Shown here: positions 17,943 to 62,985 of the stretch, in pieces
How positions within the stretch are numbered: the first letter of the stretch is position 1
Layout: every line of letters begins with the position of its first letter
Source of the DNA: a bacterium
GTDB lineage: Bacteria; Verrucomicrobiota; Kiritimatiellia; CAIKKV01; CAITUY01
NCBI GenBank assembly: GCA_037141135.1
Contig: JBAXDB010000001.1
Span: forward strand, 9,191 to 73,190
Direction of reading: 5' to 3'
DNA length: 64,000 nucleotides
The notes under the pieces: generated by a model
Database searches by the model: none
Told to the model about the DNA's origin: nothing
What the model saw: only the letters and a program-made list of their open reading frames with translations
Program-made: the position numbers and the translations under genes

Positions 17943-17944
17943 TA

Positions 17945-19342
17945 ATGAGAACCGAGCAGGATTCATTGGGTGAGCGGCAGGTGCCTGAGGGCGCACTCTA
18001 TGGTATTCACACGCTGCGGGCATTGGAGAATTTCCCGCTCAGCGGGCGTCCGGTGCATCCGGCGCTGGCCGCGGCGTATGGGACCGTGAAGCTCGCCTGC
18101 GTACGGACCAACCGGCGCCTTGGCATGTGGGCGGATGAGGCCCTGGTGGATGCCCTGGAGTCCGCCTGCCGCGAACTGATGGACGGGCGGCTGGTGGAGC
18201 ATATCCGCGTGGATGCCCTGCAGGGCGGTGCGGGAACATCCACCAACATGAACGTGAACGAGGTGCTGGCGAACCGGGCTCTGGAACTGCTCGGGCAACC
18301 GTGCGGCGCGTATAATGTCATTTCCCCACTCAACGATCTCAACCTGCACCAGTCCACGAATGACACCTTCCCCACGGCGTTGCGGCTGGCTGCCATCAGG
18401 AGTCTGCATGCCCTGGAGGCGCGGGTGACGTCCTTGCAGGAGGCCTTCCAGGCCAAGGAGAAAGAATTTGCGGATGTCGTCAAAGTCGGCCGAACGGAGT
18501 TTCAGGATGCGGTGTTGATCACGTTGGGGCGCGAAATGGGCGCGTATGCCGAGGCCTTTAATCGTGATCGCTGGCGACTCTACAAATGTGAGGAGCGGCT
18601 GCGCGTGGTGAATCTGGGCGGCACGGCCGTGGGCACTGGCCTGGGGGCGCCGCGTGATTACATCTTCCGCGTGGTGGATGAACTGCGCGAACTGACCGGC
18701 ATCGGTTTTGCGCGCGCCGAGAATCTGGTGGACGCCACGCAGAACACGGATGTGCTGGTGGAGGTATCTGGTATTCTCAAGGCCTGTGCGACCTCGCTCA
18801 TTAAGATTGCCAACGATGTACGGCTGCTTTCCAGCGGGCCGGATGCCGGGCTGGGCGAACTGCGACTGCCGGCGATGCAGGCTGGCTCCTCGATCATGCC
18901 GGGCAAGGTGAACCCGGTGATCCCCGAGGCGGTGGTGCAGGCCGCCTTGCGGGTGCTGGGCAATGACAGCACTATTGCCATGGCCTCGGCCATGGGCAGT
19001 CTGGAATTGAATGCGTTTATGCCGCTCATGGCGGATTGCCTGCTTGAAAGCCTGGATCTGTTAACCCGGGCCTGCGCCCTGTTCGATGAGCTTTGCGTAC
19101 GTGGTTTGGTCGCTTGTGCGGAGCAGTGTCGCGTACATGTTGATGGCACGGTCGCTGCCGCAACGGCGCTGGTGCCGGTGTTGGGCTATGAACGGGCTGC
19201 AGAGTTGGCCGCTGAAGTTGCAAGGTCCGGTCGGCCGCTGCGGGACCTGATAGTGGAGAGGGGCATTCTGACCGCCGAAGCTTTCACTGAACTAATTTCC
19301 GCCGAAGCCGTTTGCCGCCTCGGCCATCCTAAACAAAAATGA
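17945..19342 (+). CDS. aspartate ammonia-lyase/fumarase class II family protein embedded in the hyd maturase operon
   Basis: GSSIMPGKVNP is the fumarate-lyase signature. It is translationally coupled: 2 nt after hydG, with a 4-nt overlap to hydF. Confidence 0.85.
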   Translation: MRTEQDSLGERQVPEGALYGIHTLRALENFPLSGRPVHPALAAAYGTVKLACVRTNRRLGMWADEALVDALESACRELMDGRLVEHIRVDALQGGAGTSTNMNVNEVLANRALELLGQPCGAYNVISPLNDLNLHQSTNDTFPTALRLAAIRSLHALEARVTSLQEAFQAKEKEFADVVKVGRTEFQDAVLITLGREMGAYAEAFNRDRWRLYKCEERLRVVNLGGTAVGTGLGAPRDYIFRVVDELRELTGIGFARAENLVDATQNTDVLVEVSGILKACATSLIKIANDVRLLSSGPDAGLGELRLPAMQAGSSIMPGKVNPVIPEAVVQAALRVLGNDSTIAMASAMGSLELNAFMPLMADCLLESLDLLTRACALFDELCVRGLVACAEQCRVHVDGTVAAATALVPVLGYERAAELAAEVARSGRPLRDLIVERGILTAEAFTELISAEAVCRLGHPKQK

Positions 19343-20577
19343 ATAAGACTCCAAAAGGGTATCGGCTGCATATCGGCATCTTTGGCCGGCGCAATGTGGG
19401 CAAATCGAGCGTGCTGAATGCGATTACCAGTCAGCAGGTGTCGATCGTCTCCGACGTGGCCGGCACGACGACTGATCCGGTGGAGAAGCCCATGGAACTG
19501 CTGCCGCTCGGGCCGGTTCTCTTTATCGATACTGCCGGGGTGGATGATGAAGGCATGCTCGGCGACTTGCGCGTGCAGCGCACGAAGCAGGTGCTCGAAC
19601 GGACCGACCTGGGACTGATTATTACCGAGGGCCGCACATGGGGTTCCTACGAGCAGACGCTGGCGGCAGAACTCAAGCGGCGCAAGGTGACGGTTCTTGT
19701 TATCTTTAACAAATCGGATGTGGCCACTGTGGATGCGGACCTTATGGCCCGGCTTCTGGCCGAAGGTATTCGCAGTCTGGCCGTCTCGGCCCGGACGGGT
19801 GCGGGGATCCAATCGCTGCGGCGGCTCCTTGTGGAGTTGGCGCCGGAGGACTTTATTGCCAGTCCCAAGATTGCGGGCGATCTGGTGCCGCCGGGCGACT
19901 GTGCGGTGTTGGTGGTGCCGGTGGATAAAGAAGCGCCCAAGGGACGCCTGATTCTGCCGCAGGTGCAGACGATCCGTGATCTGCTGGACAACGATTCCTA
20001 TTGCCTGGTCGTCAAAGAACGCGAATTGCGTGAGGCCTTGGGGCGGCTGAACCGGCCTCCGGCGCTCGTGGTGACAGATTCCCAGGCGTTTCTCAAGGTG
20101 GCGGCGGATACGCCTGAGTCTGTGCCTCTGACATCGTTTTCGATTCTATTTGCCCGATTTCACGCGGATTTGGACGAGATGGTGCGGGGGGCTCTGGCGA
20201 TTGCGAAGCTCAAGGGCGGTGACCACGTTCTGATCGCCGAGGCCTGCTCGCATCACCCGATCGGTGAGGACATCGGCACGATCAAGATTCCGCGCTGGCT
20301 GACGCAGTATGTGGGTGGTAAGCTGGAGTTCGAGTACACCCGCGGTCATGATTTTCCTGCCGACCTGGCGAAGTACAAGCTCATCATTCATTGCGGGGCC
20401 TGCATGTGGAACCGGCGTGAGATGCTTTCGCGGCACCTGGTGGCACGGGAAGCTGGTGTGCCCATGACCAACTACGGGCTGGCGATTGCGTTCTCGCTCG
20501 GGATCTTTGAGCGCGCCCTGCGGCCCTTTCCCGGTGCCTATGAAATTTACCGGAAAAGTCAGGGAGTGACGATATGA
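19339..20577 (+). CDS. hydF: [FeFe]-hydrogenase maturase GTPase HydF
   Basis: The GTPase motifs GRRNVGKSS and DTAG are present, and the C-terminal cluster-binding motifs CSHHP and HCGAC. Confidence 0.9.
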   Translation: MNKTPKGYRLHIGIFGRRNVGKSSVLNAITSQQVSIVSDVAGTTTDPVEKPMELLPLGPVLFIDTAGVDDEGMLGDLRVQRTKQVLERTDLGLIITEGRTWGSYEQTLAAELKRRKVTVLVIFNKSDVATVDADLMARLLAEGIRSLAVSARTGAGIQSLRRLLVELAPEDFIASPKIAGDLVPPGDCAVLVVPVDKEAPKGRLILPQVQTIRDLLDNDSYCLVVKERELREALGRLNRPPALVVTDSQAFLKVAADTPESVPLTSFSILFARFHADLDEMVRGALAIAKLKGGDHVLIAEACSHHPIGEDIGTIKIPRWLTQYVGGKLEFEYTRGHDFPADLAKYKLIIHCGACMWNRREMLSRHLVAREAGVPMTNYGLAIAFSLGIFERALRPFPGAYEIYRKSQGVTI

Positions 20578-21710
20578 GTGCGCTGGCCGATCTGGTGCAA
20601 CAGACGGAATTCAGCCGCGAGGAGATTGCGTTCCTGCTGGGCAGGCGTGACAAGGCTGAAGTGGAAATGTTGCGTAAGGCTGCGGAGGCATTGTGCTTCG
20701 CCTGCGTGGGCAACAAGGTTCACTTCCGCGGACTGGTAGAGTTCTCAAACATCTGCGTGTGCGACTGTCACTACTGCGGGATCCGCAAAAGCAACCCGGC
20801 CCCAACGCGCTTCTTCCTGACCCTGGATGAGGTGATGCAAGCCGCGCACTGGTGCGCGGAGCAGGGCTACGGGTCGCTCGTGCTGCAGTCGGGTGAGCGG
20901 CGTGATGAGCCGTTCATCCAGTTTGTGGAAAATGCGGTCCGGATGATCAGGGCCGGGACGCGGACGGTGAAGCAGCCCGACGGGCTTGGCATCACCCTGT
21001 GTGTGGGGGAGCAGACGCGGGAGACCTATACGCGGTTCAAGGCGGCGGGAGCGCATCGTTACCTGCTGCGCATTGAATCGTCTTCTCCGCGGCTGTTTCG
21101 CCAGTTGCATCCCCCGGGGCAGACTCTTGAGCAGCGGGTGCAGTGTCTGCATTGGCTGCGCGAAGCGGGTTTCCAGGTGGGGACAGGCGTGATGATCGGG
21201 TTCCCCGGCCAGACGCTGGAAGACCTGGCGGATGATGTGCTGTTTTTCCAGTCGCAGGACGTGGATATGATTGGCATGGGGCCCTACATTGTGCATAAGC
21301 AGACGCCCATGGCGGTGCATGAGGCCGGGATGGCCCTGAGGCGCGATGAGATTTACCAGTTGGCGCTCAACATGATTGCGGTGACGCGGCTGGTACTGCG
21401 GAACGTGAACATTGCGGCGACCACGGCGCTTCAGGCGATGAAGCCCACGGGCCGTGAGGAAGGCCTGACCTATGGGGCCAACGTGATCATGCCGCAACTT
21501 ACCCCCACGGAGTTCCGCAAGGATTACCAGCTCTATGAAGGCAAGCCGTGTCTGGACGAAAATCGCGACTTGTGCAAGATGTGTCTTGAAAAGCGCATTG
21601 CCGGTATCGGCAGGGTCATTGGCTATCACGAATGGGGCGATTCGCGGCACGCCCGCGACCGGCAGGCCGCTGCGCCGCTTCATGAAGATCTGAATTGTCT
21701 TCAGCGATGA
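20574..21710 (+). CDS. hydE: [FeFe]-hydrogenase maturase HydE (radical SAM, BioB-like)
   Basis: The radical SAM motif is CVCDCHYCGIR. It overlaps hydF by 4 nt. Confidence 0.85.
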   Translation: MSALADLVQQTEFSREEIAFLLGRRDKAEVEMLRKAAEALCFACVGNKVHFRGLVEFSNICVCDCHYCGIRKSNPAPTRFFLTLDEVMQAAHWCAEQGYGSLVLQSGERRDEPFIQFVENAVRMIRAGTRTVKQPDGLGITLCVGEQTRETYTRFKAAGAHRYLLRIESSSPRLFRQLHPPGQTLEQRVQCLHWLREAGFQVGTGVMIGFPGQTLEDLADDVLFFQSQDVDMIGMGPYIVHKQTPMAVHEAGMALRRDEIYQLALNMIAVTRLVLRNVNIAATTALQAMKPTGREEGLTYGANVIMPQLTPTEFRKDYQLYEGKPCLDENRDLCKMCLEKRIAGIGRVIGYHEWGDSRHARDRQAAAPLHEDLNCLQR

Positions 21711-50833: not shown

Positions 50834-51436
50834 ATGGAGGCAATTGTTTCAATCGAGCTTCTTGAACGTGCCAGGAAGGGCGATATGGACGCTTTTCTGG
50901 CATTGTTCGAGGAGTCACGTGCAACGATTCATGCGGTGGCGTGGCGGTTGGTTGGGCCGGATGAAGCTGAAGATGTTGTGATGGAAACCTATCTGCGGGC
51001 CTGGAAGTCGGTCCCCGGCTTCACAGGGCGGTCCAGTGTAAGGACATGGTTGTGCAGGATTGCGCATAACTGCTCGGTGGACTGGTTAAGGAAACGGCGC
51101 CATGTGGTTCAGCCGCAAGACTTTGGAGAGGATGATGAGTCGGGGACTGGGGGCGGTGAGGGGGGGCAATTTGCTGATACCAGCCAGCGTGCCCCTTCCG
51201 AGGTTATGGCAGGAGCTGAATTGCAGGTTGCGATTGATTCGGCCTTGGAAACAGTCTCTCCCGAGCATCGTGTGGTGTTATTATTGAGATTTTCGGATGG
51301 TTTGAGTTACTCCGAAATTGCGGAGGCCACCGGGGTATCGATCGGTACTGTCATGTCCAGGCTGTTTAATGGGCGACGTAAACTTATTAAGGCACTTGCG
51401 AACCTTGGCATAAAGACGTCAGGAGGGTGGCTATGA
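50834..51436 (+). CDS. RNA polymerase sigma-70 factor, ECF subfamily
   Basis: Region 2 (VVMETYLRAWKS) and region 4 HTH (LSYSEIAEATGVSIGTVMSRL) are present. Confidence 0.85.
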   Translation: MEAIVSIELLERARKGDMDAFLALFEESRATIHAVAWRLVGPDEAEDVVMETYLRAWKSVPGFTGRSSVRTWLCRIAHNCSVDWLRKRRHVVQPQDFGEDDESGTGGGEGGQFADTSQRAPSEVMAGAELQVAIDSALETVSPEHRVVLLLRFSDGLSYSEIAEATGVSIGTVMSRLFNGRRKLIKALANLGIKTSGGWL

Positions 51437-51804
51437 ACAAAGGCACATGGCTAGAAATTGAGGCAGGCTTGATACGCCGGAAAACGCCGGCGATGCGAAG
51501 CGCGGTTGAATCGTTTCAGCAGGACTTCAAGGCGCGCGCCACTTTTATTCGGCAGGAAACTGTAGCTGAGACAGCGCTGTCATGGTTCCCAGTTTTGAAC
51601 TGGCGTTATGTGGTTCCCGCGGCAGCGGCGCTACTGATTGCAGGGCTTGTGATGTGGCCTTCTCCAACCGCTCTGGTTACCCAGATTAAGTCGTTGCAAG
51701 TGTTTTCACCCCACAGCTCTGTGATTATTATGGTGGATGAGAAAGAGCCCGGAACGGTGGTTTGGGTGACTGATTTGGAGTCCGGCGATGGGAATGCGGG
51801 ATAA
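51427..51804 (+). CDS. putative single-pass anti-sigma factor
   Basis: It overlaps the sigma-factor 3' end, at 125 aa, with a central TM helix (VVPAAAALLIAGLVMW). Confidence 0.5.
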   Translation: MAMNKGTWLEIEAGLIRRKTPAMRSAVESFQQDFKARATFIRQETVAETALSWFPVLNWRYVVPAAAALLIAGLVMWPSPTALVTQIKSLQVFSPHSSVIIMVDEKEPGTVVWVTDLESGDGNAG

Positions 51805-51807
51805 GAC

Positions 51808-52218
51808 ATGAATGTTAACCTTAAAATAATCTTGTTCCTTGGCATGATGTTAAGTGCGGGAGTAGCTTTTGCGGGTTCAACCTTGAGCATCAGGTTGGTT
51901 GAAGCCAGTAATGCCGGCCAGGGGATGGGTACCGGATTAGGTGATGTTGCGCACTTGCTACAGAATAATCTGCCCTATAAAACATTTCAATTGCTGGCGA
52001 GTCGTTCCATGTCGTTGCCGGCAAGTAGTGCGGCTTCATTAAGCGCCGGAATTGTCGCCCGTTGTTCTGGCGGGCAGGATAACATGCATGTGATTCTTGA
52101 ACGCGGTGGCAAAAAAATCATGCAGACCACCGTTGAACTCCGTGATGGAACCCCTTTAATCATTGGCGGGATTTCGTCCGGGCAGGGGAAGTTGATTGTC
52201 GTGCTGCTTGCGAAATGA
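51808..52218 (+). CDS. secreted hypothetical protein (signal peptide), third gene of the ECF operon
   Basis: MNVNLKIILFLGMMLSAGVAFAG is a signal peptide. No domain is recognised. Confidence 0.5.
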   Translation: MNVNLKIILFLGMMLSAGVAFAGSTLSIRLVEASNAGQGMGTGLGDVAHLLQNNLPYKTFQLLASRSMSLPASSAASLSAGIVARCSGGQDNMHVILERGGKKIMQTTVELRDGTPLIIGGISSGQGKLIVVLLAK

Positions 52219-52221
52219 AAG

Positions 52222-52350
52222 CAGTATTCAGAATTCAGGTCGAAACTTTTCCCTCGCCCCTTGAGGGAGAGGGTTAGGGTGAGGGGTTTCCATAGTCAGA
52301 ATCCAGAATGTCCACCATTCGGAATCCTGACTACTGATGACTGAATCCTG
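52222..52350. repeat. composite intergenic repeat between convergent genes: CAG-heptamers (gcagtat tcagaat tcaggtc), a REP-like unit (52251..52287), then inverted heptamers (actactg atgactg aatcctg)
   Basis: Direct reading. The architecture mirrors the 3076..3181 element, with a REP unit inserted in the loop. Confidence 0.6.
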
Positions 52351-52355
52351 ATTTC

Positions 52356-52817
52356 TTAGAATCCGTACGCGACTTTCAATTGATCTTCAGTAGGCAATGC
52401 CGGGTAATACTCGCCTCGTGGCCCGACATATTGATTGCCCAAGCGCCGCATGGTCACCGGAGTATACGAGCCATTGGAGTTTTTTACATTAATGACCGTC
52501 GTGTTGGCGGCTTCGTTGGCAGCGCCGATTTGAGCGTTCATGGCGCCCATTTGAGCGTTCGATTTATCTGTTTGGTGTCCCATAGCCCCGCCCATCAGTC
52601 CGCCCAGCGCCGCGCCAGCAACCATGCCTTCACGGTTGCCGAATGCGCCGTGACTATTATTGCCTATGATACCGCCAGCGATGGCTCCTAAAGCTGCGCC
52701 AATTGCCGCTTGATTAAAAGTTGAAGGATTCTCCTGATATTGAGGAGTGGAACATCCCACCATGACGAGCCCAGCCATTGCGATGCCTGCCGATTTGAGA
52801 ATCATTGTCTTTTTCAT
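52356..52817 (-). CDS. glycine-zipper-containing lipoprotein (lipobox LVMVGC; 17-kDa-antigen-like)
   Basis: A signal peptide plus lipobox is followed by a Gly-rich GxxxG zipper (AIGAALGAIAGGIIG...GAALGGLMGGAMG). Confidence 0.65.
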   Translation of the reverse strand: MKKTMILKSAGIAMAGLVMVGCSTPQYQENPSTFNQAAIGAALGAIAGGIIGNNSHGAFGNREGMVAGAALGGLMGGAMGHQTDKSNAQMGAMNAQIGAANEAANTTVINVKNSNGSYTPVTMRRLGNQYVGPRGEYYPALPTEDQLKVAYGF

Positions 52818-53025: not shown

Positions 53026-54141
53026 ATGCAGATGCAAAATCAGCCCAGGATTGAAAAAAAAACGCTCATTTGCGGTCAGGCGGAATTAGTCGCCTCCAAA
53101 CTGTTTTTGCCAGCTCGTACCGAGCACGTGATTACGGCTTGTGGCCATGATGGTGTGGCATTGGAGCAGTTGCTGCACGACGAAATGATGGCTGAAGAAG
53201 CGCAGCCTGTCAGCCGGTTAATTTTTGGAGGGGGCCGTTACTATGAGGCGTTGGGCGAGGCCTATTTACGGGAGGACGGCTGTCTTCTGCGGCTAAAAGA
53301 GGCAACCTGTAGTGACGGCCAAATGTGCGCCATGCAGGCCACGGCCATTTCGGGGACATCATTGTTTCCATTGCGTCAGAAAGGGCGCAACATAGGCGTG
53401 ATTTATGAAGATGAGTGTGCCCGCTATTGTCGCTTAACGGGGGTTATTCCTCTTGTTATGACCGCCTCGCGGGAAGAGCAGACACTTGCCGTTTTTGAGA
53501 TGCTGGATTGGATTCTTACGACCAATGGGTTCTGCTTTACGGACACCATTCGCACCTGGTTCTATCTTGATCATTTGCTGGACTGGTATAAGGAGTTTAA
53601 TGATGTCCGGACTCGTTTTTTTGAAGTGCGAGGAGTCTTTAACAAACTTGTGCCGGCCAGTACGGGCATCGGGGCGGCCAATCCCTGGGGGGCGGCCTTG
53701 ACCTGCGATCTGCTCGCCATTCAACCGAGGACGGCGGATGTTTCCATTGAAGTTGCGTCTTCGCCCCTGCAGGACTCGGCTCTCAGATATGCCAGTTCTT
53801 TCAGCCGTGCCGTTGAAGTTCGCATGCCATCGCACCGCAGCCTGCTGATATCAGGAACCGCGAGTATTGATGCTGAGGGTAAAACACAATTTGCGGGTGA
53901 TCATACCCGCCAGATCGAGCGGACCCTTGAGGTCGTGACGGCCCTCCTTGAATCCCGCAACATGGCTTGGAAGGATGTGAACCGGGGAATCGCTTATTTT
54001 AAGGATATGGAAGATCGATCGATTTTCGATGCCATTTGCCGAACTTATGGTATACAACTATTCCCGTTGGCGTTGTCGCAGGCGGATGTGTGTCGACATG
54101 ACCTGCTGTTTGAACTGGAAGTTGATGCCGTCAAAATATAG
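53026..54141 (+). CDS. tandem RidA/YjgF-fold protein, possibly chorismatase (FkbO/Hyg5/XanB2-like)
   Basis: It is about 370 aa, with two YjgF-like halves. The C-terminus HDLLFELEVDAVKI matches RidA-type ends. Confidence 0.4.
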   Translation: MQMQNQPRIEKKTLICGQAELVASKLFLPARTEHVITACGHDGVALEQLLHDEMMAEEAQPVSRLIFGGGRYYEALGEAYLREDGCLLRLKEATCSDGQMCAMQATAISGTSLFPLRQKGRNIGVIYEDECARYCRLTGVIPLVMTASREEQTLAVFEMLDWILTTNGFCFTDTIRTWFYLDHLLDWYKEFNDVRTRFFEVRGVFNKLVPASTGIGAANPWGAALTCDLLAIQPRTADVSIEVASSPLQDSALRYASSFSRAVEVRMPSHRSLLISGTASIDAEGKTQFAGDHTRQIERTLEVVTALLESRNMAWKDVNRGIAYFKDMEDRSIFDAICRTYGIQLFPLALSQADVCRHDLLFELEVDAVKI

Positions 54142-54154
54142 GAAAAAAGATATT

Positions 54155-55363
54155 ATGCACACAATTTGGTTTGCTGTTCTGTCCCTGATGTTATCGTTTG
54201 TTTCTCTTTCAAATGCAGGAAACGCGACCGGTTGGCGTGGCGATGCCACCGGCCGTTATCCTGCGGCCACTCCACCTGTTTCCTGGTCTAAAACCAACAA
54301 TGTCGTCTGGAATACGCGTTTGCCTCATTTTTCCAATGCGACTCCATTGCTCCTCAAAAACAGACTTCTGGTATGTGCCGAGCCCTCTACTTTAATTTGC
54401 CTCGATGCCGTCAACGGGCAGATTTTGTGGCAGAAGACTAACACGTACGCGGATGTCCTCTCACCGTCCGAAATTGAACAGGCCAGACTTGTTTATACCA
54501 ATCTGGCATCCAACCCGCGAACTCATGATGTTACAGGGTTTACTTCGCCTTCGCCGGTAACGGACGGGAAGCGCATTTATGCGGTGTTTGGGAATGGTGT
54601 GGCGGCTTGCTATGAATTGGATGGAACGCGGGTATGGGGCCGGCTGATTGAACGGCCGCAACATGATTGGGGCCACAGTGCGTCACCGTTGTTGATTGGC
54701 AATAAGATGCTGGTACATGTGCTCAAGATGACCGCTTTGGATGTGTCCACTGGAAAGACATTGTGGGCTACCGAATCACCTCCGGGATGGGGGACATCCG
54801 TTTCTGCGCGGCTGGGTGAAGTGGAAGTGGTGATCACACCTAAAGGTGACATTTTCAGGGTTTCTGATGGGACAAAACTCGCTAAGTCTGTAGCCAAGCT
54901 GGATTACTGTGCACCGGTGGTTGAGAAAGATATTGTCTATTTTGTAGAAAATGGCGGCAAAGCTATTCGTCTTCCTGCCACAGTTTCCGAGCCGGTAAAA
55001 GTTGAGACTCTTTGGCAGACCAGCCCGGTGGCGGAGCGCTATTACGCCTCACCGGTATACTATAAGGATCGTCTCTATGCGGTCCAGCAAAGGGGAGTCC
55101 TCAGTACCATCGATGCGGTTACCGGCAAGGTCTTGTCTGAGAATAAATTAGAACTTGGCGGCACCTTTTATCCCAGCGTTACTCTGGCCGGACACAATCT
55201 TTTCGTGAGCAGTGACAATGGTGTGACGGTTGTATTTGATGTGGACGATGCAGGAAAAGAAATTGCGCGGAACTCGCTGGAACCTTTCCGGAGTTCTCCC
55301 GTTTTCGATGGCACCCGCCTCTACATACGTACGCTTGCCGGCGTTTATTGCATTGGTAAATGA
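54155..55363 (+). CDS. PQQ-like beta-propeller repeat protein (BamB-like), secreted
   Basis: A signal peptide is followed by repeated G.v.A.D..tG..lW motifs (e.g. CLDAVNGQILWQ and ALDVSTGKTLWA). Confidence 0.7.
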   Translation: MHTIWFAVLSLMLSFVSLSNAGNATGWRGDATGRYPAATPPVSWSKTNNVVWNTRLPHFSNATPLLLKNRLLVCAEPSTLICLDAVNGQILWQKTNTYADVLSPSEIEQARLVYTNLASNPRTHDVTGFTSPSPVTDGKRIYAVFGNGVAACYELDGTRVWGRLIERPQHDWGHSASPLLIGNKMLVHVLKMTALDVSTGKTLWATESPPGWGTSVSARLGEVEVVITPKGDIFRVSDGTKLAKSVAKLDYCAPVVEKDIVYFVENGGKAIRLPATVSEPVKVETLWQTSPVAERYYASPVYYKDRLYAVQQRGVLSTIDAVTGKVLSENKLELGGTFYPSVTLAGHNLFVSSDNGVTVVFDVDDAGKEIARNSLEPFRSSPVFDGTRLYIRTLAGVYCIGK

Positions 55364-56733
55364 GGGATTTCCACGACGTGATAATGCCCTTGATTGAAGA
55401 CCTGTCTGGCGGAAGAGGGCGGCTTCCATTGAAATCGATCTGAATAGATTAGTAGGCTGCCAAGCTTGAGGGGGGTTGGCGCAAGGTGCAGCGGGGTAGG
55501 CCAATAGCCGGCTTTCAGGAAGATCGTACTTTCATCAATGGTCGTCATGGCGGCAGAAACAACTTGAGTCGGATTCTGCGCGCGTGCCCATTCAACTAAG
55601 GCCGTGAGATTCTTTTCCGGCGGATCTTGAAAATGGATGGGCAGGAGTTGGATGGCCAGGCTGACAGCAATGATGAGCAGGGCGGTGAGGTTCAGTCCCC
55701 GCCGGTACCATTGGCGTAAGGGACTCCATGCACATGTGGCAATGCCATAGGCGGCGATCATGGCCATCATCGGATAAAGCGGGAGCTCGTAGCGTGGTCG
55801 CTTGTCCGGGAACAGGGTGAGTCCGATCGCCCAGAATCCTATCCACACTGAGGCAAGTAAAAACATTTGGCGGTGATGTCGGGAGACAGGGTGTCGCCAC
55901 CAGCGAAACAGGCCTGCAATCAGGGCAATCATCCAGGGCCAATAGGAGCGCCCAATTTCAACAATGTAGTACCATACGGGTTCACGGTTGCGGAGTCCTT
56001 GTAGCCGGGCCACCACCTCATGGCCGAAGTATTGGCGGGTGAAGGCCTCGCCATAGAGGTGAATCATGGAGGCGTGCCATGGAAGGGCAATGAGAAGCGC
56101 CGTCAAGGTAAGGGCGAGAATGGATGAAGCAGATCCTAACCGGTTCTTTCGCTCAAAAAACTGCCAGACGAAAAGAATGGGAATCACCATAAACGCCATT
56201 AATGGTTTGCACATCAGGGCCAGCCCGAGGGGAATTCCGGCGAGCCAGGATACGTTTTGACGATTGCCTTTGATGGCTGCCAGCCAGATCCAGACGGCGG
56301 CCAGCATAAACAGGAGCTGCCACATATCCAGACAGATCTCGCGGGAGCGGCGGAAGAACTCATAAGAGAGGGCCATCACGGAACCGGTGAGCAGGGCGAG
56401 GATTCTGCCTGAAAGTCGACGGGAAATCCCGACGGTGAGCAACACGCACCCAGCGGCGGCGAGAATGGAGGGGAGTCTTGCGGCGGCGAGGTTGATGCCG
56501 AATAAATGCAGGAAAAGCCCGTGGATCCAGAACACCAGCGGTGGTTTGTTGAAATAGCAGACAGACGGATGCTCATGGGGCGTCCAGAACAGGGTGGGGT
56601 TTTGCCAACCTTGCAATCCGACCGCGGCATAATGCGCGGTTTCTGCCCTGAAATCGCCCTGATCAAGATGGGGCAGGGTGACGGCCAGAAGGAACAACAC
56701 CGGCAACGCATAGATCCAGAATCGTCGTTTCAT
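55345..56733 (-). CDS. GT-C glycosyltransferase, ArnT/PMT family (GT39/GT83-like), second copy in the window
   Basis: KPPLVFW and RLPSILAAAG motifs typical of ArnT/PMT_2 are present, at 462 aa and multi-TM. Confidence 0.7.
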   Translation of the reverse strand: MKRRFWIYALPVLFLLAVTLPHLDQGDFRAETAHYAAVGLQGWQNPTLFWTPHEHPSVCYFNKPPLVFWIHGLFLHLFGINLAAARLPSILAAAGCVLLTVGISRRLSGRILALLTGSVMALSYEFFRRSREICLDMWQLLFMLAAVWIWLAAIKGNRQNVSWLAGIPLGLALMCKPLMAFMVIPILFVWQFFERKNRLGSASSILALTLTALLIALPWHASMIHLYGEAFTRQYFGHEVVARLQGLRNREPVWYYIVEIGRSYWPWMIALIAGLFRWWRHPVSRHHRQMFLLASVWIGFWAIGLTLFPDKRPRYELPLYPMMAMIAAYGIATCAWSPLRQWYRRGLNLTALLIIAVSLAIQLLPIHFQDPPEKNLTALVEWARAQNPTQVVSAAMTTIDESTIFLKAGYWPTPLHLAPTPLKLGSLLIYSDRFQWKPPSSARQVFNQGHYHVVEIPHLPMQ

Positions 56734-56795
56734 AATGAGTTAGTCGTTGGAAGATATTGCATCTGGGGGCGGCTTGCACTAATTTTCTGGCACAC

Positions 56796-57998
56796 ATGTT
56801 AACTGCATTCATAGGGCGATCCATCGAAGAGCGGGCGTTTGCGGCGTTACTGGCGACCGTTTGTACCATCACTTTCTCCATTGCGTTGGGACAACTCTGT
56901 GCCGCAGTGTGTTTGTTGCTGTTCCTGATGGGGCTTTTTGCGAAACAGATTACGTGGCGCAATCCGCCCGGTTTGGGAATCGCGGTAGCGTTTGTGGTTT
57001 TTGCGATCATACTCTCTGCCATTCTGGGAGACATCGCCGGTCTCTGGACGAGAGTCGGGCGGTTATTCTGGTTTATTCTTATACCTGTCACGGCTTCCCT
57101 GGTGGCAGTAACTGGGCGCGATCGCAAAGTGATTGCGGCATTTCTGGGCGGTTGTGCGGTGTTGGGGGTTAAAGATCTTGTGGTGTATCCGATACTGGCC
57201 TGGCGTAAACCCCTTCCGGATTATCTGACTGCCCTGATTGACAAAGGATCCATGACCGATGGGCAGATGCTGATGTTGGGAGTGGTGGGGACGGTGCTGA
57301 TTTTGTTGATGGCGGTCAAGGAGCGGCGCTCCATGCCCTGGTGGTGGTGGGTGATCCTGCTGGCCCAAGTAGCGGGCCTCGTGATCAACTTCAAGCGCGG
57401 ATCATGGTTCTGTGCCATGATCCTGATCGGGATTGCGGTGTTGTTGCAACTCCGGTGGCGTGCCTGGGTGGTCATGGCGTCATTACTTGTGATCTTTTTC
57501 GCGCTCCCTCCTGTACAAACCCGGATGCTTCAATTGAAGCGGGAATTCAATGTTGAGGGTGGGGGCCGGTTGACCATGTGGTTCAAAATCGCCCCCGCCT
57601 TGATACGGGACCACCCTGCCGGAATTGGATTCGGGTGTCTGACCAACGAAAAAATGAAACAGGTTTTCAGGCATGTGGAGCCGAACCGGAATCATCTGCA
57701 TGCCAATTGGGCGCAGGTGTTGGTTGAAACAGGCTGGGCCGGGCTGGCGCTGTATCTCGTATGGATGGTGAAAATGTTGCTGAACAACCTCGCCTGGGTG
57801 CGGCGCTTACGAACGGCGACAGCGGCGGAAAGAGGTGTGGCGTGGGTGGCGCTTTCCATTTTGGCCGGACTATTGTTAAACGGCCTGGTTGAGTATAATT
57901 TCGGGGATACCGAATTGATGTTTATCTATGCCGTCATTATGGGCTTAACAGGTGCTTGCATAGGCAAGTCTGTATCGGTAAAGTGGCGCGCATTATGA
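56796..57998 (+). CDS. O-antigen ligase/polymerase family protein (Wzy_C domain; WaaL-like)
   Basis: It is multi-TM with the conserved periplasmic-loop motif NRNHLHANWAQVLVETGWAGL. The ORF track starts at a TTG at 56757; the ATG at 56796 is preferred. Confidence 0.7.
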   Translation: MLTAFIGRSIEERAFAALLATVCTITFSIALGQLCAAVCLLLFLMGLFAKQITWRNPPGLGIAVAFVVFAIILSAILGDIAGLWTRVGRLFWFILIPVTASLVAVTGRDRKVIAAFLGGCAVLGVKDLVVYPILAWRKPLPDYLTALIDKGSMTDGQMLMLGVVGTVLILLMAVKERRSMPWWWWVILLAQVAGLVINFKRGSWFCAMILIGIAVLLQLRWRAWVVMASLLVIFFALPPVQTRMLQLKREFNVEGGGRLTMWFKIAPALIRDHPAGIGFGCLTNEKMKQVFRHVEPNRNHLHANWAQVLVETGWAGLALYLVWMVKMLLNNLAWVRRLRTATAAERGVAWVALSILAGLLLNGLVEYNFGDTELMFIYAVIMGLTGACIGKSVSVKWRAL

Positions 57999-58399
57999 AA
58001 CAGGGCGACAAATTGAAATGTAAACCGGCAATAAGTTCGGTGCTCATTCAAGCCATTGTGCCGGCTGTAGTCGGGCTGATTTTTTTGGTTTTGAAAAAGC
58101 CTGTGACCGCCAAGGTGTTATGGGGCATCAGCGGTTTATTACTCGTTTCCGGGCTCTTTATTCCTGCCGTTTTCAACCGGATTGAGCAGTTTGGCCGCTG
58201 GTTCGGGAAATGGGCGGGAACCGTCATTACCTGGGGCCTTATGGTTCCGGTATTCTATCTTGTTTTTGTGCCTGGCCGCTTGATTTTAAAGTTGCGCGGC
58301 ATCGACCCGATGTGTCGGAAATTTCCGACGGATGCCAAGACTTACTGGGTGCCCCGCAAGCCGGTAACGAACATGGCGGAATATAAGAGGCAATTCTGA
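57995..58399 (+). CDS. small 3-TM membrane protein, SxtJ-like (partner of carbamoyltransferases)
   Basis: It is 134 aa. The start overlaps the upstream stop (ATGA), and the stop overlaps the carbamoyltransferase start. The family assignment is made from size, topology and context. Confidence 0.45.
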   Translation: MKQGDKLKCKPAISSVLIQAIVPAVVGLIFLVLKKPVTAKVLWGISGLLLVSGLFIPAVFNRIEQFGRWFGKWAGTVITWGLMVPVFYLVFVPGRLILKLRGIDPMCRKFPTDAKTYWVPRKPVTNMAEYKRQF

Positions 58400-60228
58400 T
58401 GAATATTCTAGGCATCAGTGCATTTTATCATGATTCAGCGGCCGCTTTGGTTTGTGACGGCGAAATCATTGCTGCCGCACAGGAAGAGCGTTTTACCCGG
58501 AAAAAGCACGACCCCAATTTCCCTCTTAACGCTGTGAAGTATTGCCTGGCGGAACTTGAGAAGCGTGGCGGCACCCTCGATGCCGTCACCTTTTATGACA
58601 AACCTATCCGCAAGTTTGAGCGTATTTTAAAAACCTACTTCAGCACGGCTCCGGCAGGGTTGCAGTCCTTTATGATGGCCGTTCCGCTCTGGTTGAAGGA
58701 AAAACTCTGGATTCCGATGGAAATCGAGGAAACACTTGAGAAATGCGGGCTCAAAACAATCCCCACCATTTTTTTCCCCGAGCATCATGAATCCCATGCC
58801 GCAAGTGCCTTTTTCCCGTCACCTTTCAAATCCGCGGCGATTTTGACATTGGATGGAGTCGGGGAGTGGGCTACAAGTACGATCGGTCGTGGGGACGGCA
58901 ACAAGTTGGAGATCCTTGAGGATTTGCATTTTCCGCACTCGCTGGGATTGCTTTATTCCGCCTTTACTTATTTTACTGGGTTCCGCGTGAATTCCGGGGA
59001 ATATAAACTCATGGGCTTGGCCCCTTATGGGGAGCCGAAGTATGTGGATGTCATATGGGATAACCTTCTGGATATGCGCGAGGATGGCTCCTTCCGGTTA
59101 AATCTGAAGTATTTTGGTTTTGTCGACGGGCTCACCATGACCAATGATGCCTTCGCCGGTCTGTTTGGCGGGCCTGCCCGATCCTCCGAGAGTGAAATAA
59201 CCCAGCGTGAAATGGACATCGCCCGCTCCATTCAGGTCGTGACTGAAGAAATTGTGATCCGCATGGCGCGTCACGCCAAAAAAATTACCGGCGAAGATTA
59301 TTTATGCATGGCGGGCGGTGTGGCCCTGAATTGCGTGGCCAATGGCCGGCTTTTACGTGATGGCATTTTCAAGGATATCTGGATTCAACCGGCGGCCGGG
59401 GATGCCGGTGGCGCCTTGGGTGCGGCTCTCATGGTCGCTTATCAGGTCATGAAGCATCCGCGTCAGGCGGATAATGTTCATGACTTTATGAAAGGGTCGT
59501 TACTGGGGCCGGATATTCAGGATGCTGCCGTTGAGGCATTCCTCAAGGCCAATAACTATCCCGGGCACAAGTATGATCGTCAGCCGTGGGCCGATGAAAT
59601 TGCGAAGCTCATTGCCGCGGAAAACGTTATCGGCCTTGTCCAGGGGCGAATGGAATTCGGGCCCCGCGCCTTGGGTGGCCGTTCCATCATCGGGGATGCC
59701 AGGTCGCGGAAAATGCAGTCGGTCATGAATCTCAAGATCAAGTATCGCGAGTCTTTCCGGCCCTTTGCGCCGGCCTGTCTGGCGGAGCGGGTGAGTGATT
59801 ATTTTGAACTGGATCGGCCATCGCCTTATATGTTGCTGGTGGCGCAGGTACAAAAAGCGCGTTGCAAGGGGCTTGAGGATGCGGGGCAGCTATCGATTCG
59901 TGACCGCATCAATCAGGTGCGGTCGGATATCCCCGCCATAACCCATGTTGATTATTCTGCGCGGGTACAGACGGTGTCACCCGAAAGCAATGCGGGTTAT
60001 TACGATATCATTAAGGCGTTTGAAAAGCAGACGGGGTATGGCGTGGTCATCAATACCTCCTTCAATGTCCGGGGCGAGCCGATTGTCTCAACGCCTGAGG
60101 ATGCCTATCGCTGCTTTATGCGGACGGAGATGGATTACCTTGTGTTGGGCTCGTTTATTTTATCGAAAAAAGAACAGCCGCCGTGGCAGGATAAAGCCAA
60201 TTGGCGGACGGAATATGCTTTAGATTAA
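58399..60228 (+). CDS. carbamoyltransferase, NodU/CmcH family
   Basis: MNILGISAFYHDSAAALV is the ASKHA/Kae1-like N-terminus, with the carbamoyltransferase C-terminal domain, at 609 aa. Confidence 0.85.
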   Translation: MNILGISAFYHDSAAALVCDGEIIAAAQEERFTRKKHDPNFPLNAVKYCLAELEKRGGTLDAVTFYDKPIRKFERILKTYFSTAPAGLQSFMMAVPLWLKEKLWIPMEIEETLEKCGLKTIPTIFFPEHHESHAASAFFPSPFKSAAILTLDGVGEWATSTIGRGDGNKLEILEDLHFPHSLGLLYSAFTYFTGFRVNSGEYKLMGLAPYGEPKYVDVIWDNLLDMREDGSFRLNLKYFGFVDGLTMTNDAFAGLFGGPARSSESEITQREMDIARSIQVVTEEIVIRMARHAKKITGEDYLCMAGGVALNCVANGRLLRDGIFKDIWIQPAAGDAGGALGAALMVAYQVMKHPRQADNVHDFMKGSLLGPDIQDAAVEAFLKANNYPGHKYDRQPWADEIAKLIAAENVIGLVQGRMEFGPRALGGRSIIGDARSRKMQSVMNLKIKYRESFRPFAPACLAERVSDYFELDRPSPYMLLVAQVQKARCKGLEDAGQLSIRDRINQVRSDIPAITHVDYSARVQTVSPESNAGYYDIIKAFEKQTGYGVVINTSFNVRGEPIVSTPEDAYRCFMRTEMDYLVLGSFILSKKEQPPWQDKANWRTEYALD

Positions 60229-60237
60229 GGGACACTC

Positions 60238-60402
60238 ATGCGCTTTTTAAAACATTTGGGTAGGTTGCTTAAAGAGTTCGGGAGCTTTGCCTGGCACAAC
60301 AAGGCCTGGTGGATCATTCCCGTCGTGTTGGTGCTCCTGTTGCTGGGGTTCTTCATTGCGACCAGCACCGCCGTAGCCCCGTTCATCTACACTCTTTTCT
60401 GA
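60238..60402 (+). CDS. DUF5989-like small membrane protein (54 aa), not in the ORF track
   Basis: ATG at 60238 follows an AAGGGA RBS. The translation is MRFLKHLGRLLKEFGSFAWHNKAWWIIPVVLVLLLLGFFIATSTAVAPFIYTLF. The KxWW...APFIYTLF pattern matches the small proteins found 3' of carbamoyltransferases. Confidence 0.55.
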   Translation: MRFLKHLGRLLKEFGSFAWHNKAWWIIPVVLVLLLLGFFIATSTAVAPFIYTLF

Positions 60403-60459: not shown

Positions 60460-61179
60460 TTATGAGCTCTTGATCAGGCTGGCATCAAGCTGGCGCAAAT
60501 AGCGCTTCCGATACCATACAAATCCGAACAGGTCGAAAATCGTCCGGGGTAGGCGTTTCATGTTGGTGTATTTAGACGTCCCCATGGTGCGGGCGCGGTG
60601 ATCCACTGCTACTTCCTTGATTTTGCGGCCGTTCAGTGTGAAGTAGGCCGGCATGAATCGATGCACCCCTTCGACATGAGGAAGGTCGTTGACGCACACT
60701 TTGCGAAAAACCTTAAGACTGCACCCCGTGTCGCGGATCCCATCGTGAGTGGCCCAGTTGCGGACACGGTTGGCAAGGCGTGAGCCCACGCGCCGGGCCC
60801 AGGTATCCTTGCGTTTTGCCCGGTACCCGCACACCGCATCATAGCCCTGGAGTTCCTCCAGCATGCGGGGAATATCGGCCGGATTGTTTTGCAGATCACC
60901 GTCAATGGTCACCAGGATATCGCCGGCCGCCAGTTGGAGGCCTACCAGCATCGCATGACTTTGGCCGCGGTTCTGGTCGTAGTGAAGCCCCCGAACGGTC
61001 GGGAAGCGGGTTTGAGCTTCCATGACGCGAGCCCAGGTCTGATCGCGGCTGCCATCGTCGACAAGCAGGACTTCCAGATCTGGAATGGCGGGATGGAGTT
61101 TGTGGAGTTCCTCCGCGAGCGGCATGACATTGTCCTGTTCATTATAAACCGGTGCTACGATGGAAACCTTCATAGTCAT
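60460..61179 (-). CDS. GT2 polyprenyl-phosphate glycosyltransferase (ArnC/GtrB/DPM1-like)
   Basis: VSIVAPVYNE, LLVDDGSRD, the DGDLQN (DxD) motif and the C-terminal amphipathic region are present. The start ATG overlaps the ftsQ stop (TAATG). Confidence 0.8.
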   Translation of the reverse strand: MTMKVSIVAPVYNEQDNVMPLAEELHKLHPAIPDLEVLLVDDGSRDQTWARVMEAQTRFPTVRGLHYDQNRGQSHAMLVGLQLAAGDILVTIDGDLQNNPADIPRMLEELQGYDAVCGYRAKRKDTWARRVGSRLANRVRNWATHDGIRDTGCSLKVFRKVCVNDLPHVEGVHRFMPAYFTLNGRKIKEVAVDHRARTMGTSKYTNMKRLPRTIFDLFGFVWYRKRYLRQLDASLIKSS

Positions 61180-62054
61180 TAATACTCCTGTGCTGGGATA
61201 TACTGATCGGAAAACGTAAGGTCCAGATTAACCAACCGGCGCCCGCGTTCCTCGGAGGCGCGCAGGGCACTGGCAAGCGTTATCAGTTTATGCTCCGCCT
61301 TTTGCCGGAGGTCCGGCAGGTTTTTATCCATATTTTCCCAGCCGACCTTGATTTTTTCGCCAGCCGTCAGATACATCTCGAGGTGATCTTTCAGGCCTAC
61401 CTCAAGGGACGCGATTTTAACCTGTTCTCCTAATTTTGACCGGTTGCAGATATCGATGATTTCAATCGCATTCATGGCAGATTGGTCCACCCGGCCTCCG
61501 GGCTTGAGGCCGGTATCCGCGTAACCGGTGATGAGGGGATAATCCCGCCCGCCTGCCCGCAGGTTGAAGACGTAGCCTTCCCGATCCACTGCCAGCGATC
61601 CCCAACGGCCCAGGCGGGCGACTGGGATGCGTTCAATGACTTCGATGATCAGGGTGTCGGGTAGGCGGCGTTGTAATTTAACCGACTTGGCGATGGGTGC
61701 TTTGCGCAGGAAATCAGAGCGAAGCGAGGTGAGGTTTGCTGCGAACATGTTGGTCCCTTCGCCAATGTGCATGTACTCCCGAACATGCGCCGGGGTGATG
61801 GTGGCACCTTCAACATGTATTTCTAGTTTGCGAATGGTGTATTTCGGATTATCCCAGAATAAAACCGCGCCAAGTTTCCACGTCAACATGGCGCCCAGGC
61901 CAACAGCAAGAAGGCCGGCAAGGGGGATCCAGACAACTTTAGGTAGAGGCAGTTGTTTTTCATTCTGCCGCTGGTCGCGTCGGGTATTGATCTTTGCAAC
62001 GTCTCCGCGGCGGCCTTTGTCAGGTTCCGCAGTTTTATCCTGTTTAAACCACAT
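61179..62054 (-). CDS. ftsQ: cell division protein FtsQ/DivIB (POTRA domain)
   Basis: A single TM helix (VWIPLAGLLAVGLGAMLTW) is followed by POTRA and beta domains, directly downstream of ddl. Confidence 0.7.
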   Translation of the reverse strand: MWFKQDKTAEPDKGRRGDVAKINTRRDQRQNEKQLPLPKVVWIPLAGLLAVGLGAMLTWKLGAVLFWDNPKYTIRKLEIHVEGATITPAHVREYMHIGEGTNMFAANLTSLRSDFLRKAPIAKSVKLQRRLPDTLIIEVIERIPVARLGRWGSLAVDREGYVFNLRAGGRDYPLITGYADTGLKPGGRVDQSAMNAIEIIDICNRSKLGEQVKIASLEVGLKDHLEMYLTAGEKIKVGWENMDKNLPDLRQKAEHKLITLASALRASEERGRRLVNLDLTFSDQYIPAQEY

Positions 62055-62985
62055 ATTGCCCTCCTGCCTGCGGTATAACCGCCGAATCCAGCGTTGCCAT
62101 TTCCATGATCTGCCGGCATAGCGCGGGGAATGAAATTCCTGCAGCTTGAGCGGCCTCGGGAAGCAGGCTGGTTTCTGTGAACCCCGGAATGTTATTCAAC
62201 TCCAATACGAACAATTCGCCCGACTCCGTAAGCCTGAAGTCCACCCGGCCCAGTCCACGGCAGCCGAGCGCCTTGAAGGTGTGTAAGGCAATGTCACGGG
62301 CTCGATCGGCCAAATCCTTGCTGAGAGGGGCCGGGCAGAGATGTTGGGACTGGCCCTTGCTGTACTTTGCATCGAAATCGTACCACCCATCAGGTGCCAG
62401 AATTTCGATGGCTGGCAGGGCGGTGCTGCCGATCACGCCCACTGTCAATTCACGTCCCGAGATAAAAGCTTCAACGATGATTTCCCCGTCATACCGGAGT
62501 GATTCTAGAAAAGCGGCATCCCATTCATCTGGGCGGCTGACTTTAAAGATGCCAATGGTTGAGCCCTGACATGGTGGCTTAACCACAACCGGCAAGGGGA
62601 GGGTAAGGCGACCTGACGGTCCGAGCGTCTCGTAAGTGGCCGTCGGAATTCCTTCCCGGACGAATACCCTTTTGCTCAGTCGTTTATCAAAGGCGGTCAG
62701 GCTGGACTTGGGGCCCGAGCCGGTGTAGGGGATTTGTCGGGACTCGAGAAGTTTCTGAATTTGGCCATCCTCGCCAAACTCCCCGTGCAGGGCGATAAAT
62801 ACGGCATCGACAGGTTCCGGAAGATCAAGAGTCCGTCCCGTGACATCCACTTCCAGCACGTCATATCCCGCTGTCCGCAGGCCGGCGGCAACCGCCGCGC
62901 CTGACTTCAGTGAAATCGCTCGTTCTGAAGATGGGCCGCCTTTGAGAACGGCAACTTTTTTAAATGGGCCCGGTGGGGTTTTCAC
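62044..62985 (-). CDS. ddl: D-alanine--D-alanine ligase
   Basis: VAVLKGGPSSERAISLKSG, ALHGEFGEDG and ATP-grasp motifs (ELNNIPG) are present. Confidence 0.9.
   Translation of the reverse strand: MKTPPGPFKKVAVLKGGPSSERAISLKSGAAVAAGLRTAGYDVLEVDVTGRTLDLPEPVDAVFIALHGEFGEDGQIQKLLESRQIPYTGSGPKSSLTAFDKRLSKRVFVREGIPTATYETLGPSGRLTLPLPVVVKPPCQGSTIGIFKVSRPDEWDAAFLESLRYDGEIIVEAFISGRELTVGVIGSTALPAIEILAPDGWYDFDAKYSKGQSQHLCPAPLSKDLADRARDIALHTFKALGCRGLGRVDFRLTESGELFVLELNNIPGFTETSLLPEAAQAAGISFPALCRQIMEMATLDSAVIPQAGGQYVV

Follow-up and report, generated by a model that had tools for sequence, protein, structure and literature searches.

A divergent SxtJ, a carbamoyltransferase and a DUF5989 protein form a conserved module in a Kiritimatiellia-like genome: a possible system for carbamoylation of envelope glycans

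The subject of this study is a module of three genes on the forward strand of a 64,000-nucleotide stretch (referred to below as the window) of contig JBAXDB010000001.1, assembly GCA_037141135.1, from a bacterium of the Kiritimatiellia. The module encodes a small membrane protein (J), a carbamoyltransferase (CT) and a second small membrane protein of 54 residues (K). A reading made from the sequence alone had described the same three genes as the trio known from saxitoxin clusters, and its coordinates and gene content are correct according to both the list of open reading frames (ORFs) and the raw sequence, in which all three ORFs are present in the order J-CT-K (Table 1). The trio is an intact operon segment of an SxtI-type carbamoyltransferase together with both of its small membrane partners, strongly conserved and translationally coupled, and we regard its identity as an SxtI/SxtJ/SxtK-type module as practically certain.

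Table 1. Genes and ribosome-binding motifs of the module and its immediate neighbors (window coordinates).
Feature	Position	Strand	Start, stop and size	Assignment
J-like gene	57995..58399	+	ATG 57995 to TGA 58399; 134 aa, 405 bp	Divergent SxtJ homologue
Carbamoyltransferase (CT) gene	58399..60228	+	ATG 58399 to TAA 60228; 609 aa, 1830 bp	NodU/CmcH/TobZ/GdmN family, SxtI-like subfamily
K-like gene	60238..60402	+	ATG 60238 to TGA 60402; 54 aa, 165 bp	DUF5989 (SxtK-type)
Wzy_C gene	56757..57998	+	413 aa	O-antigen ligase/polymerase superfamily membrane protein; Pfam Wzy_C 2.6e-16
GT-C gene (PMT_2/ArnT-like)	55345..56733	-	462 aa	Pfam PMT_2 6e-20; divergent from the Wzy_C gene
GT2 gene (ArnC/GtrB/DPMS-like)	60460..61179	-	239 aa	Pfam Glycos_transf_2 1e-24; convergent with K
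Shine-Dalgarno-like AAGAGG	58385..58390	+		Inside the J 3' end, 8 nt before the CT start; read from sequence
Shine-Dalgarno-like AAGGGA	60227..60232	+		Overlaps the CT stop codon, 5 nt before the K start; read from sequence

The Wzy_C gene, J, CT and K are four consecutive genes on one strand. Overlaps of one nucleotide had been described for both ends of J; this is the case for the junction with CT (TGATG), whereas the junction with the Wzy_C gene is a 4-nt overlap (ATGA, with the Wzy_C stop codon at 57996-57998). The distance between CT and K is 9 nt instead of the 10 nt given previously, and the Shine-Dalgarno-like AAGGGA motif corresponds to the ribosome-binding site proposed for K. The longer start of J proposed by the ORF lister (TTG 57956, giving 147 residues) was rejected, since the homologues are mostly 134 residues long and the ATGA coupling favors ATG 57995. 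K as a spurious small ORF is excluded by its Pfam match and by its conservation across phyla. A scan for promoter and terminator consensus sequences between 55 and 61.5 kb of the window gave matches no more numerous than in shuffled sequence. Upstream of the module, the Wzy_C and GT-C genes, which diverge, have their predicted starts just 23 nt apart (56733-56757), and the Wzy_C start is a TTG with an in-frame ATG 13 codons downstream; either one of the two starts is mis-assigned or the promoters are located within the neighboring coding regions.

The carbamoyltransferase matches Pfam Carbam_trans_N (PF02543; 5.8e-98, 328.9 bits, cut-off 24) and Carbam_trans_C (PF16861; 4.2e-71, 238.4 bits, cut-off 27) and is composed of a Kae1-like N domain and a YrdC-like C domain. 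An identical sequence is present at NCBI as 'carbamoyltransferase' (MEI7879286.1). In a comparison with PDB entries, residues 8-594 align with the solved proteins GdmN (2.4e-88), NovN and TobZ (range 2.4e-88 to 4e-70), and the motifs HHESH, LDGVGE, PAAGDAGG, GPRALGGRS, FRPFAP, HVD..ARVQ and NTSFN are kept relative to GdmN. From what is known of TobZ and GdmN, we take this set of motifs to be the active site and the metal- or nucleotide-binding positions. In those enzymes the YrdC-like domain makes carbamoyl-AMP from carbamoyl phosphate and ATP, and the Kae1-like domain moves the carbamoyl group onto a hydroxyl of the substrate. TobZ, GdmN, NovN, NodU/NolO and CmcH have the two-domain architecture and the catalytic motifs in common with the window CT, for which the same two-step mechanism is presumed. 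To our knowledge, these enzymes act as soluble proteins without partners of the SxtJ/K type. The window CT differs from them by its own J and K partners and by a hydrophobic segment described below; moreover, it scores far below the NodU equivalog cut-off (NCBIfam NF041651; 151.8 bits against 1000) and is not a NodU orthologue. The 'GPRALGRS' carbamoyltransferase motif has also been remarked on in the saxitoxin literature.

Carbamoyltransferases linked to J homologues are much closer to the window CT (600-1340 bits) than GdmN, which reaches only about 300 bits. At residues ~88-108, these J-linked enzymes have in common a segment that is both hydrophobic and amphipathic (FMMAVPLWLKEKLWIP, window 58660-58722), whereas the region is polar in GdmN. 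They also conserve the C-terminal end ...DQP.W...W..Y.LD-COOH (window 60160-60225). Judged by their sequence, both the segment and the ...Y.LD end are candidate membrane- or partner-binding elements.

The searches of the two small proteins against curated hidden Markov models (HMMs) had different outcomes, with a match for K but not for J. K matches Pfam DUF5989 (PF19451) over residues 10-54 with 59 bits (E 4.8e-16, cut-off 27). It is a single-pass protein that begins with a basic and amphipathic stretch, has one transmembrane helix and ends in APFIYTLF, and it is nearly invariant in 24 loci across phyla, from Kiritimatiellia to distant canonical loci (EF..F..NK.WW..P...LLL....AP-FIYTLF). Here and below, canonical denotes trios in the order CT, SxtJ recognized by PF19588, DUF5989 recognized by PF19451. 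K had been described as unannotated, yet the identical sequence is already deposited at NCBI as 'DUF5989 family protein' (MEI7879287.1). From the identical gene size of 165 bp and the position of DUF5989 behind a PF19588 SxtJ in the canonical loci L035-L040, we infer that the cyanobacterial SxtK is a DUF5989 protein as well.

J is recorded at NCBI as 'hypothetical protein' (WCI95_00290). It is a small membrane protein with three predicted hydrophobic helices, which the sequence-only reading had given as three transmembrane segments, and has a basic, conserved C-terminal tail (DP..R.FP....TYWVPRKPV....Y.RQF-COOH). The earlier label 'SxtJ-like' finds no counterpart in the curated models: against Pfam, including the SxtJ model PF19588, and against NCBIfam no match was obtained for J even at E<=10, only noise (SecE, TssN), and a PF19588 search of the clade members P0062, P0055 and P0073 likewise gave no match at E<=10. 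All 73 direct and 283 profile homologues of J are unnamed and carry no precomputed Pfam domain, nor does any of P0001-P0123 carry one. PF19588 surfaced in searches with J from L032-L034, the three loci of the genome scan that are most distant; the matches carry PF19588 and names such as 'SxtJ family membrane protein', and the HMM of the window clade also detects the CT-linked J of these three loci. In an hhalign comparison, the window clade (alignment A1) and 28 PF19588/'SxtJ family' proteins (alignment A4) match with 99.5 % probability and an E-value of 3.8e-22 over 111 columns, which span transmembrane helices two and three as well as the tail at the C-terminus. The PF19588 model itself comprises 99 positions of the transmembrane part only, and the shared tail DP..R.F....TYWVPRxPV...Y.RQF-COOH falls outside it. 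Because this profile-profile comparison with PF19588 members shows homology, J can be assigned as a divergent SxtJ, which fails membership of the curated model but, on the alignment, is clearly homologous. The label is thus retained on the basis of the profile comparison.

The polar or aromatic residues Q19, E64, D104, R108, Y117, W118, R121, Y130 and Q133 of J are invariant. An AlphaFold2 model based on a 39-sequence alignment (mean predicted local distance difference test score, pLDDT, of 87) places helices at residues 13-32, 36-55 and 57-100, followed by the conserved tail in an extended conformation and a short terminal helix, and hydropathy indicates hydrophobic segments at ~16-34, ~42-61 and ~77-98. 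As the N-terminus and the C-terminal tail are both rich in Lys/Arg, the topology is not fixable by the positive-inside rule. With Foldseek, no PDB entry matched the model at E<1, and a tblastn search of J against the PLSDB plasmids gave no match.

The linkage of the three families was followed across genomes. A genome scan with A1 returned 29 loci, and look-ups of contigs added 11, resulting in 40 loci with a J homologue. The scan was confined to proteins with the exact TYWVPR/FVPGR motifs, and the taxonomic spread is therefore a lower bound; with the exception of one Gemmatimonadales locus, the 29 scan loci belong to Kiritimatiellia, Verrucomicrobiota, Lentisphaerota or Planctomycetota. A CT gene adjoins the J homologue in each of the 40 loci, a strong co-occurrence of the small ORFs with carbamoyltransferases. 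Of the 31 loci with the order J-CT, 26 share the exact 1-nt overlap TGATG, and K follows CT after 8-15 nt in the close clade. The order J-CT-K is found in Kiritimatiellia and Verrucomicrobiota, and the order CT-J-K, which is that of sxtI-J-K, in L032-L040 (Planctomycetota, Gemmatimonadales and the canonical loci L035-L040). The SxtJ superfamily as a whole is large, with 16,055 cluster representatives (50 % identity) at E<=1e-3 in an exhaustive profile search. Among its best 150 matches is one read-through fusion of metagenomic origin (P0254, 559 residues), in which a CT C-terminus is joined to a full SxtJ at residues 418-559. If genuine, this fusion implies a physical association of both proteins and a cytoplasmic N-terminus of SxtJ. 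An arrangement in which J and K anchor the neighboring family-2 glycosyltransferase (GT2) instead of the CT was rejected, since the CT is linked in 40 of 40 loci and the GT2 in about a third. J and K are very probably partners of the CT.

The window GT2 consists of the catalytic domain only and is devoid of a C-terminal transmembrane region. Its closest PDB relatives are ArnC (6.9e-36), GtrB and dolichol-phosphate-mannose synthase (DPMS), and these solved relatives all act on polyprenyl phosphate. Neither glycosyltransferase reaches equivalog level: the GT2 scores 137.6 bits against the NCBIfam ArnC model (cut-off 529) and the GT-C 65.5 bits against the ArnT model (cut-off 567). The GT2 gene lies directly beside K in the window and in L006-L014, while both outer flanks vary, the groups with different flanks that keep it being the window and L006, L007, L008, L009-L012, and L013. 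The family is found again in L005 and L021 in other arrangements on the same strand; in L021 a PMT_2 GT-C gene (4e-31) immediately follows K and precedes the GT2. The earlier argument for an envelope-glycan locus, which had been built on all three neighbors, therefore needs to be shifted: the GT-C and Wzy_C genes are not conserved partners of the module, but in this clade the ArnC/GtrB/DPMS-like GT2 is. K and the convergent GT2 gene overlap at their 3' ends by ~9 nt in L009 (12399-12407) and L010 (12400-12408), and also in L011 and L012, while they are separated by 5 nt in L006 and by 57 nt in the window; such tail-to-tail packing leaves no space for a terminator between them. At its other end, the start of the GT2 gene overlaps the stop codon of ftsQ, so that it is the last gene of the ddl-ftsQ operon (61179-62985, reverse strand) at the end of the dcw cluster, an unusual place for a polyprenyl-phosphate glycosyltransferase.

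A Pfam scan of the 141 proteins encoded no more than three genes away from the module, taken from 34 non-redundant loci, places Glycos_transf_2 at the top (12 proteins), followed by Lipase_GDSL_2 (7), Chalcone_3 (4), PMT_2 (3), Epimerase (3), GT1 (2) and Wzy_C (2). Further glycan genes are a WecA/MraY-type GT4 coupled upstream of the module in L029, genes for a UDP-sugar dehydrogenase, an oxidoreductase and an epimerase in L016, genes for NeuB, an epimerase and a CMP-transferase in L001, and GT4 genes in L028 and L030. Glycan genes are thus common, yet not universal, around the module in relatives from the Planctomycetota-Verrucomicrobiota superphylum (PVC group). A GDSL/SGNH lipase-like protein is encoded directly beside the module in 7 of the 34 loci, and all six of these neighbors that were inspected (L008:4056-5471, L013:6794-8128, L015:8675-9952, L028:2509-3585, L035:8812-9447 on the reverse strand and L038:1304-3070) have an N-terminal membrane anchor. 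The window has no GDSL homologue.

The most direct point of comparison is the saxitoxin cluster, in which sxtI-J-K is the reported gene order and the genes measure 1839, 405 and 165 bp, respectively (PMC2679770). The sizes of sxtJ and sxtK equal those of the window J and K, and sxtI is close to the 1830 bp of the window CT; the protein families, their tight linkage and the GPRALGxRS motif in the CT are the same too. The window differs in the order J-CT-K, in a J that is too divergent for PF19588, in the lack of other sxt genes among the window ORFs scanned for context (16.5-21.7 kb and 26-64 kb) and in its surroundings, which are housekeeping and envelope genes of a Kiritimatiellia-like genome. 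The equation with sxtI-J-K put forward earlier consequently holds for the CT, DUF5989 and divergent SxtJ families, though not for the gene order. The saxitoxin trio is assigned to the O-carbamoylation of decarbamoyl-saxitoxin, a small soluble alkaloid, and the adjoining sxtL, next to sxtK, is conventionally assigned to decarbamoylation (PMC2679770). A grouping of sxtJ, K and L is also present in the suomilide gene cluster, and the GDSL genes beside the module mirror both of these arrangements. In agreement with the earlier statement that the function of the trio is unknown, papers from 2025-2026 go no further for SxtJ and SxtK than 'hypothesised to work in conjunction with SxtI'.

In the canonical trios, for example those of Planctomycetota and Phycisphaerae, J, K and CT are all homologous to those of the window, with a J tail TYWVPRxPV...Y.RQF, a K end ...AP-FIYTLF and a CT C-terminus ...LD in common. 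They differ in their order CT-J-K, in a longer K of 64-70 residues and in a J of 148 residues, the N-terminus of which has a motif INWxPxRRxLRxFG not seen in the window J. Their loci show no linkage to a GT2, and a GDSL lipase is often encoded nearby.

Two other systems offer analogies. In the eukaryotic dolichol-phosphate-mannose synthase, the anchor-less catalytic subunit DPM1 is tethered by the tiny membrane proteins DPM2 and DPM3; it has the concept in common with CT, J and K, with no sequence or fold relationship, and the parallel concerns the mechanism only. The Arn pathway (ArnC, ArnD, ArnE/F and ArnT) likewise combines an ArnC-like GT2, a GT-C, small membrane proteins and an enzyme that modifies a sugar in the cytoplasm, and in the window such proteins are encoded in one neighborhood. 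The window proteins nevertheless miss the ArnC and ArnT equivalog cut-offs, J and K are unrelated to ArnE/F, and the GT2 has no transmembrane region as in ArnC. The parallel is thus a functional analogy only, at the level of protein classes.

The remainder of the scanned window ORFs is dominated by housekeeping and envelope functions, including SecA, Lnt, RF, Gmk, HtrA-like proteases, EF-G, HydG/F/E and the end of the dcw cluster. The [FeFe]-hydrogenase maturases (HydG-like with radical SAM and BATS domains, HydF and a radical-SAM HydE-like protein) are encoded at 16539-21710, with an aspartase/fumarase-class lyase between HydG and HydF, and point to an anaerobic, hydrogen-metabolizing host. 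Just upstream of the glycan genes, at 50834-52817, the translations read as a sigma factor of the extracytoplasmic function (ECF) type, a coupled putative anti-sigma factor, a small secreted protein and a convergent glycine-zipper lipoprotein-like ORF; this group may be an envelope-stress regulatory unit. It is followed by a 371-residue protein (53026-54141, forward strand) with a weak FkbO/Hyg5 chorismatase-like N-terminal domain and a RidA/L-PSP domain, and by a PQQ-like beta-propeller protein at 54161-55363.

Starting from the families, the operon structure and the linkage observed here, we infer that CT, J and K form a complex and that J and K tether the CT to the membrane. Such a role of J and K is suggested because their linkage to the CT is obligate, K is extremely conserved, the CT carries a hydrophobic segment and one natural fusion exists. 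We thus propose, with moderate confidence, that the module is one functional unit in which the J/K-tethered CT acts on a membrane-bound intermediate of an envelope glycan. The CT would make carbamoyl-AMP from carbamoyl phosphate and ATP and transfer the carbamoyl group to a hydroxyl of its substrate, while J and K would fasten this enzyme, in itself soluble, to the cytoplasmic side of the inner membrane, much as DPM2 and DPM3 do with DPM1. The substrate would be a polyprenyl-phosphate-linked sugar, most simply the product of the linked GT2, or another membrane-bound intermediate of an envelope glycan, and carbamoylation would precede flipping and transfer to a periplasmic acceptor. The whole would resemble the lipid-carrier route of the Arn pathway, with O-carbamoylation in place of the deformylation by ArnD. 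Complex, membrane localization and substrate are all deduced from gene linkage and sequence, and the parts of the proposal are of unequal strength: a glycan as the target in this lineage is somewhat probable, whereas a polyprenyl-phosphate sugar in particular is a tentative choice, suggested because the module travels with an anchor-less GT2 and the window adds a GT-C and a Wzy_C protein.

Several observations weigh against this proposal. As the saxitoxin trio is assigned to a soluble alkaloid, any specificity of J and K for lipid-linked substrates is ruled out. A glycan character is not obvious for the canonical loci L035-L040, the GT2 is adjacent in 12 of the 34 loci and not in all, and GT-C and Wzy_C together recur solely in the nearest relative L006, with one further GT-C in L021, such that their linkage may be recent synteny. 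Three transmembrane helices combined with the cytoplasmic N-terminus indicated by the fusion would put the basic tail of J in the periplasm, in conflict with a simple picture in which this tail docks on the CT; the single fusion P0254 could itself be a frameshift or an assembly artefact. Furthermore, a subclade (L001, L005, L018, L020, L022, L025 and L027) is without K within the DNA fetched, from which it follows that K is apparently dispensable in some lineages, or is encoded elsewhere. This subclade, as well as L002 and L017, has a longer J of 153-158 residues with an N-terminal W.W motif; in the latter two the fetched DNA stops soon after CT, and K may be present there. A Chalcone_3-domain gene is located just upstream in L001, L002, L017 and L018.

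The observations on the canonical loci lend themselves to another explanation, in which the molecule carbamoylated by the module is small and soluble, be it a metabolite, a signal or an osmolyte. J and K would remain helpers of the CT, and the glycan neighbors would be coincidental or a matter of local synteny. The cyanobacterial trio with its soluble alkaloid, the occurrence of the trio in the suomilide cluster, L035-L040 without clear glycan neighbors and the many PVC-group loci with unrelated neighbors (SpoU, ABC1 kinase, amine oxidase, YbeY/PhoH) all fit with a soluble substrate. Yet the GT2 stays beside the module as the outer flanks change and reappears independently in L005 and L021, glycan families dominate the recurrent neighbors in the census, and the need for two conserved membrane proteins is hard to explain for such a substrate, for which reasons we consider this alternative rather unlikely. 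The nearest characterized relatives of the CT (GdmN, NovN, TobZ and SxtI) are all natural-product enzymes, which suggests a role of the module in tailoring a secondary metabolite such as a toxin or an antibiotic; the clusters for saxitoxin (sxt), novobiocin, geldanamycin and tobramycin would be the precedents. Among the scanned window ORFs, however, there are no secondary-metabolite or toxin genes (polyketide synthase, nonribosomal peptide synthetase, amidinotransferase, tailoring or other sxt genes), the neighbors being housekeeping and envelope genes, and the module is kept in many metagenome-assembled genomes of the PVC group while its core-genome contexts change. We therefore judge such a role very unlikely, and the preference for a glycan 'rather than a toxin' expressed in the sequence-only reading agrees with the gene content.

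A different division of labor would be that J and K translocate, either by flipping or exporting the carbamoylated product or by a relay in which the carbamoyl group crosses the membrane and reaches an SGNH/GDSL transferase in the periplasm. Acetyl relay in the O-acetylation of glycans (PatA/PatB, OatA, AlgI/J/X) provides an analogue. The invariant residues of J and the invariant extracytoplasmic C-terminal motif of K exceed what a tether requires, and the membrane-anchored GDSL-lipase-like neighbors, along with the position of sxtL beside sxtK and the grouping of sxtJ, K and L in the suomilide cluster, would supply the periplasmic partner. Such a relay cannot apply directly to the window, which is without a GDSL homologue; the transmembrane helices of J and K add up to only four, and searches with Pfam/NCBIfam and with Foldseek against the PDB revealed no fold of a transporter or an acyltransferase. 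Moreover, we know of no carbamoyl-relay chemistry. Given also that the assignment of SxtL to decarbamoylation is the conventional one (PMC2679770), translocation by J and K appears distinctly improbable.

Part of this picture was already in place: Pfam has families for SxtJ and DUF5989, two of the three genes bear a family name at NCBI, and I, J and K are handled as a unit in the saxitoxin literature. What is new is that the 'hypothetical' J across the whole PVC-group clade is a divergent SxtJ missed by the curated model, that the gene order is permuted to J-CT-K, and that a conserved GT2 partner of the polyprenyl-phosphate type provides a hypothesis on the substrate that can be tested in non-toxic bacteria. 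The strongest conserved features (the J tail, the C-terminal motif of K, the hydrophobic segment of the CT and its ...LD end) lie outside the Pfam model and provide concrete targets for mutagenesis and multimer modeling.

In a broader and more speculative view, which we consider improbable at present, SxtI/SxtJ/SxtK-type trios are primarily a widespread envelope-glycan machine that carbamoylates polyprenyl-phosphate-linked sugars, and the saxitoxin and suomilide clusters recruited the module secondarily. In lineages with a GDSL partner, the carbamoyl group might instead be passed on to an SGNH enzyme of the periplasm, and the window would represent an Arn-like pathway from the GT2 via CT/J/K to the GT-C that puts carbamoyl-sugars on the envelope of Kiritimatiellia. 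Should our glycan hypothesis not be confirmed, the window holds a correctly recognized copy of a common, catalogued trio. If it is true, the role of J and K would be explained and O-carbamoylation would join the known modifications of sugars at the level of the lipid carrier. SxtJ and SxtK have been part of saxitoxin schemes since 2008 with a function that is still hypothesized, and this long-standing question is made somewhat more tractable by the features described here.

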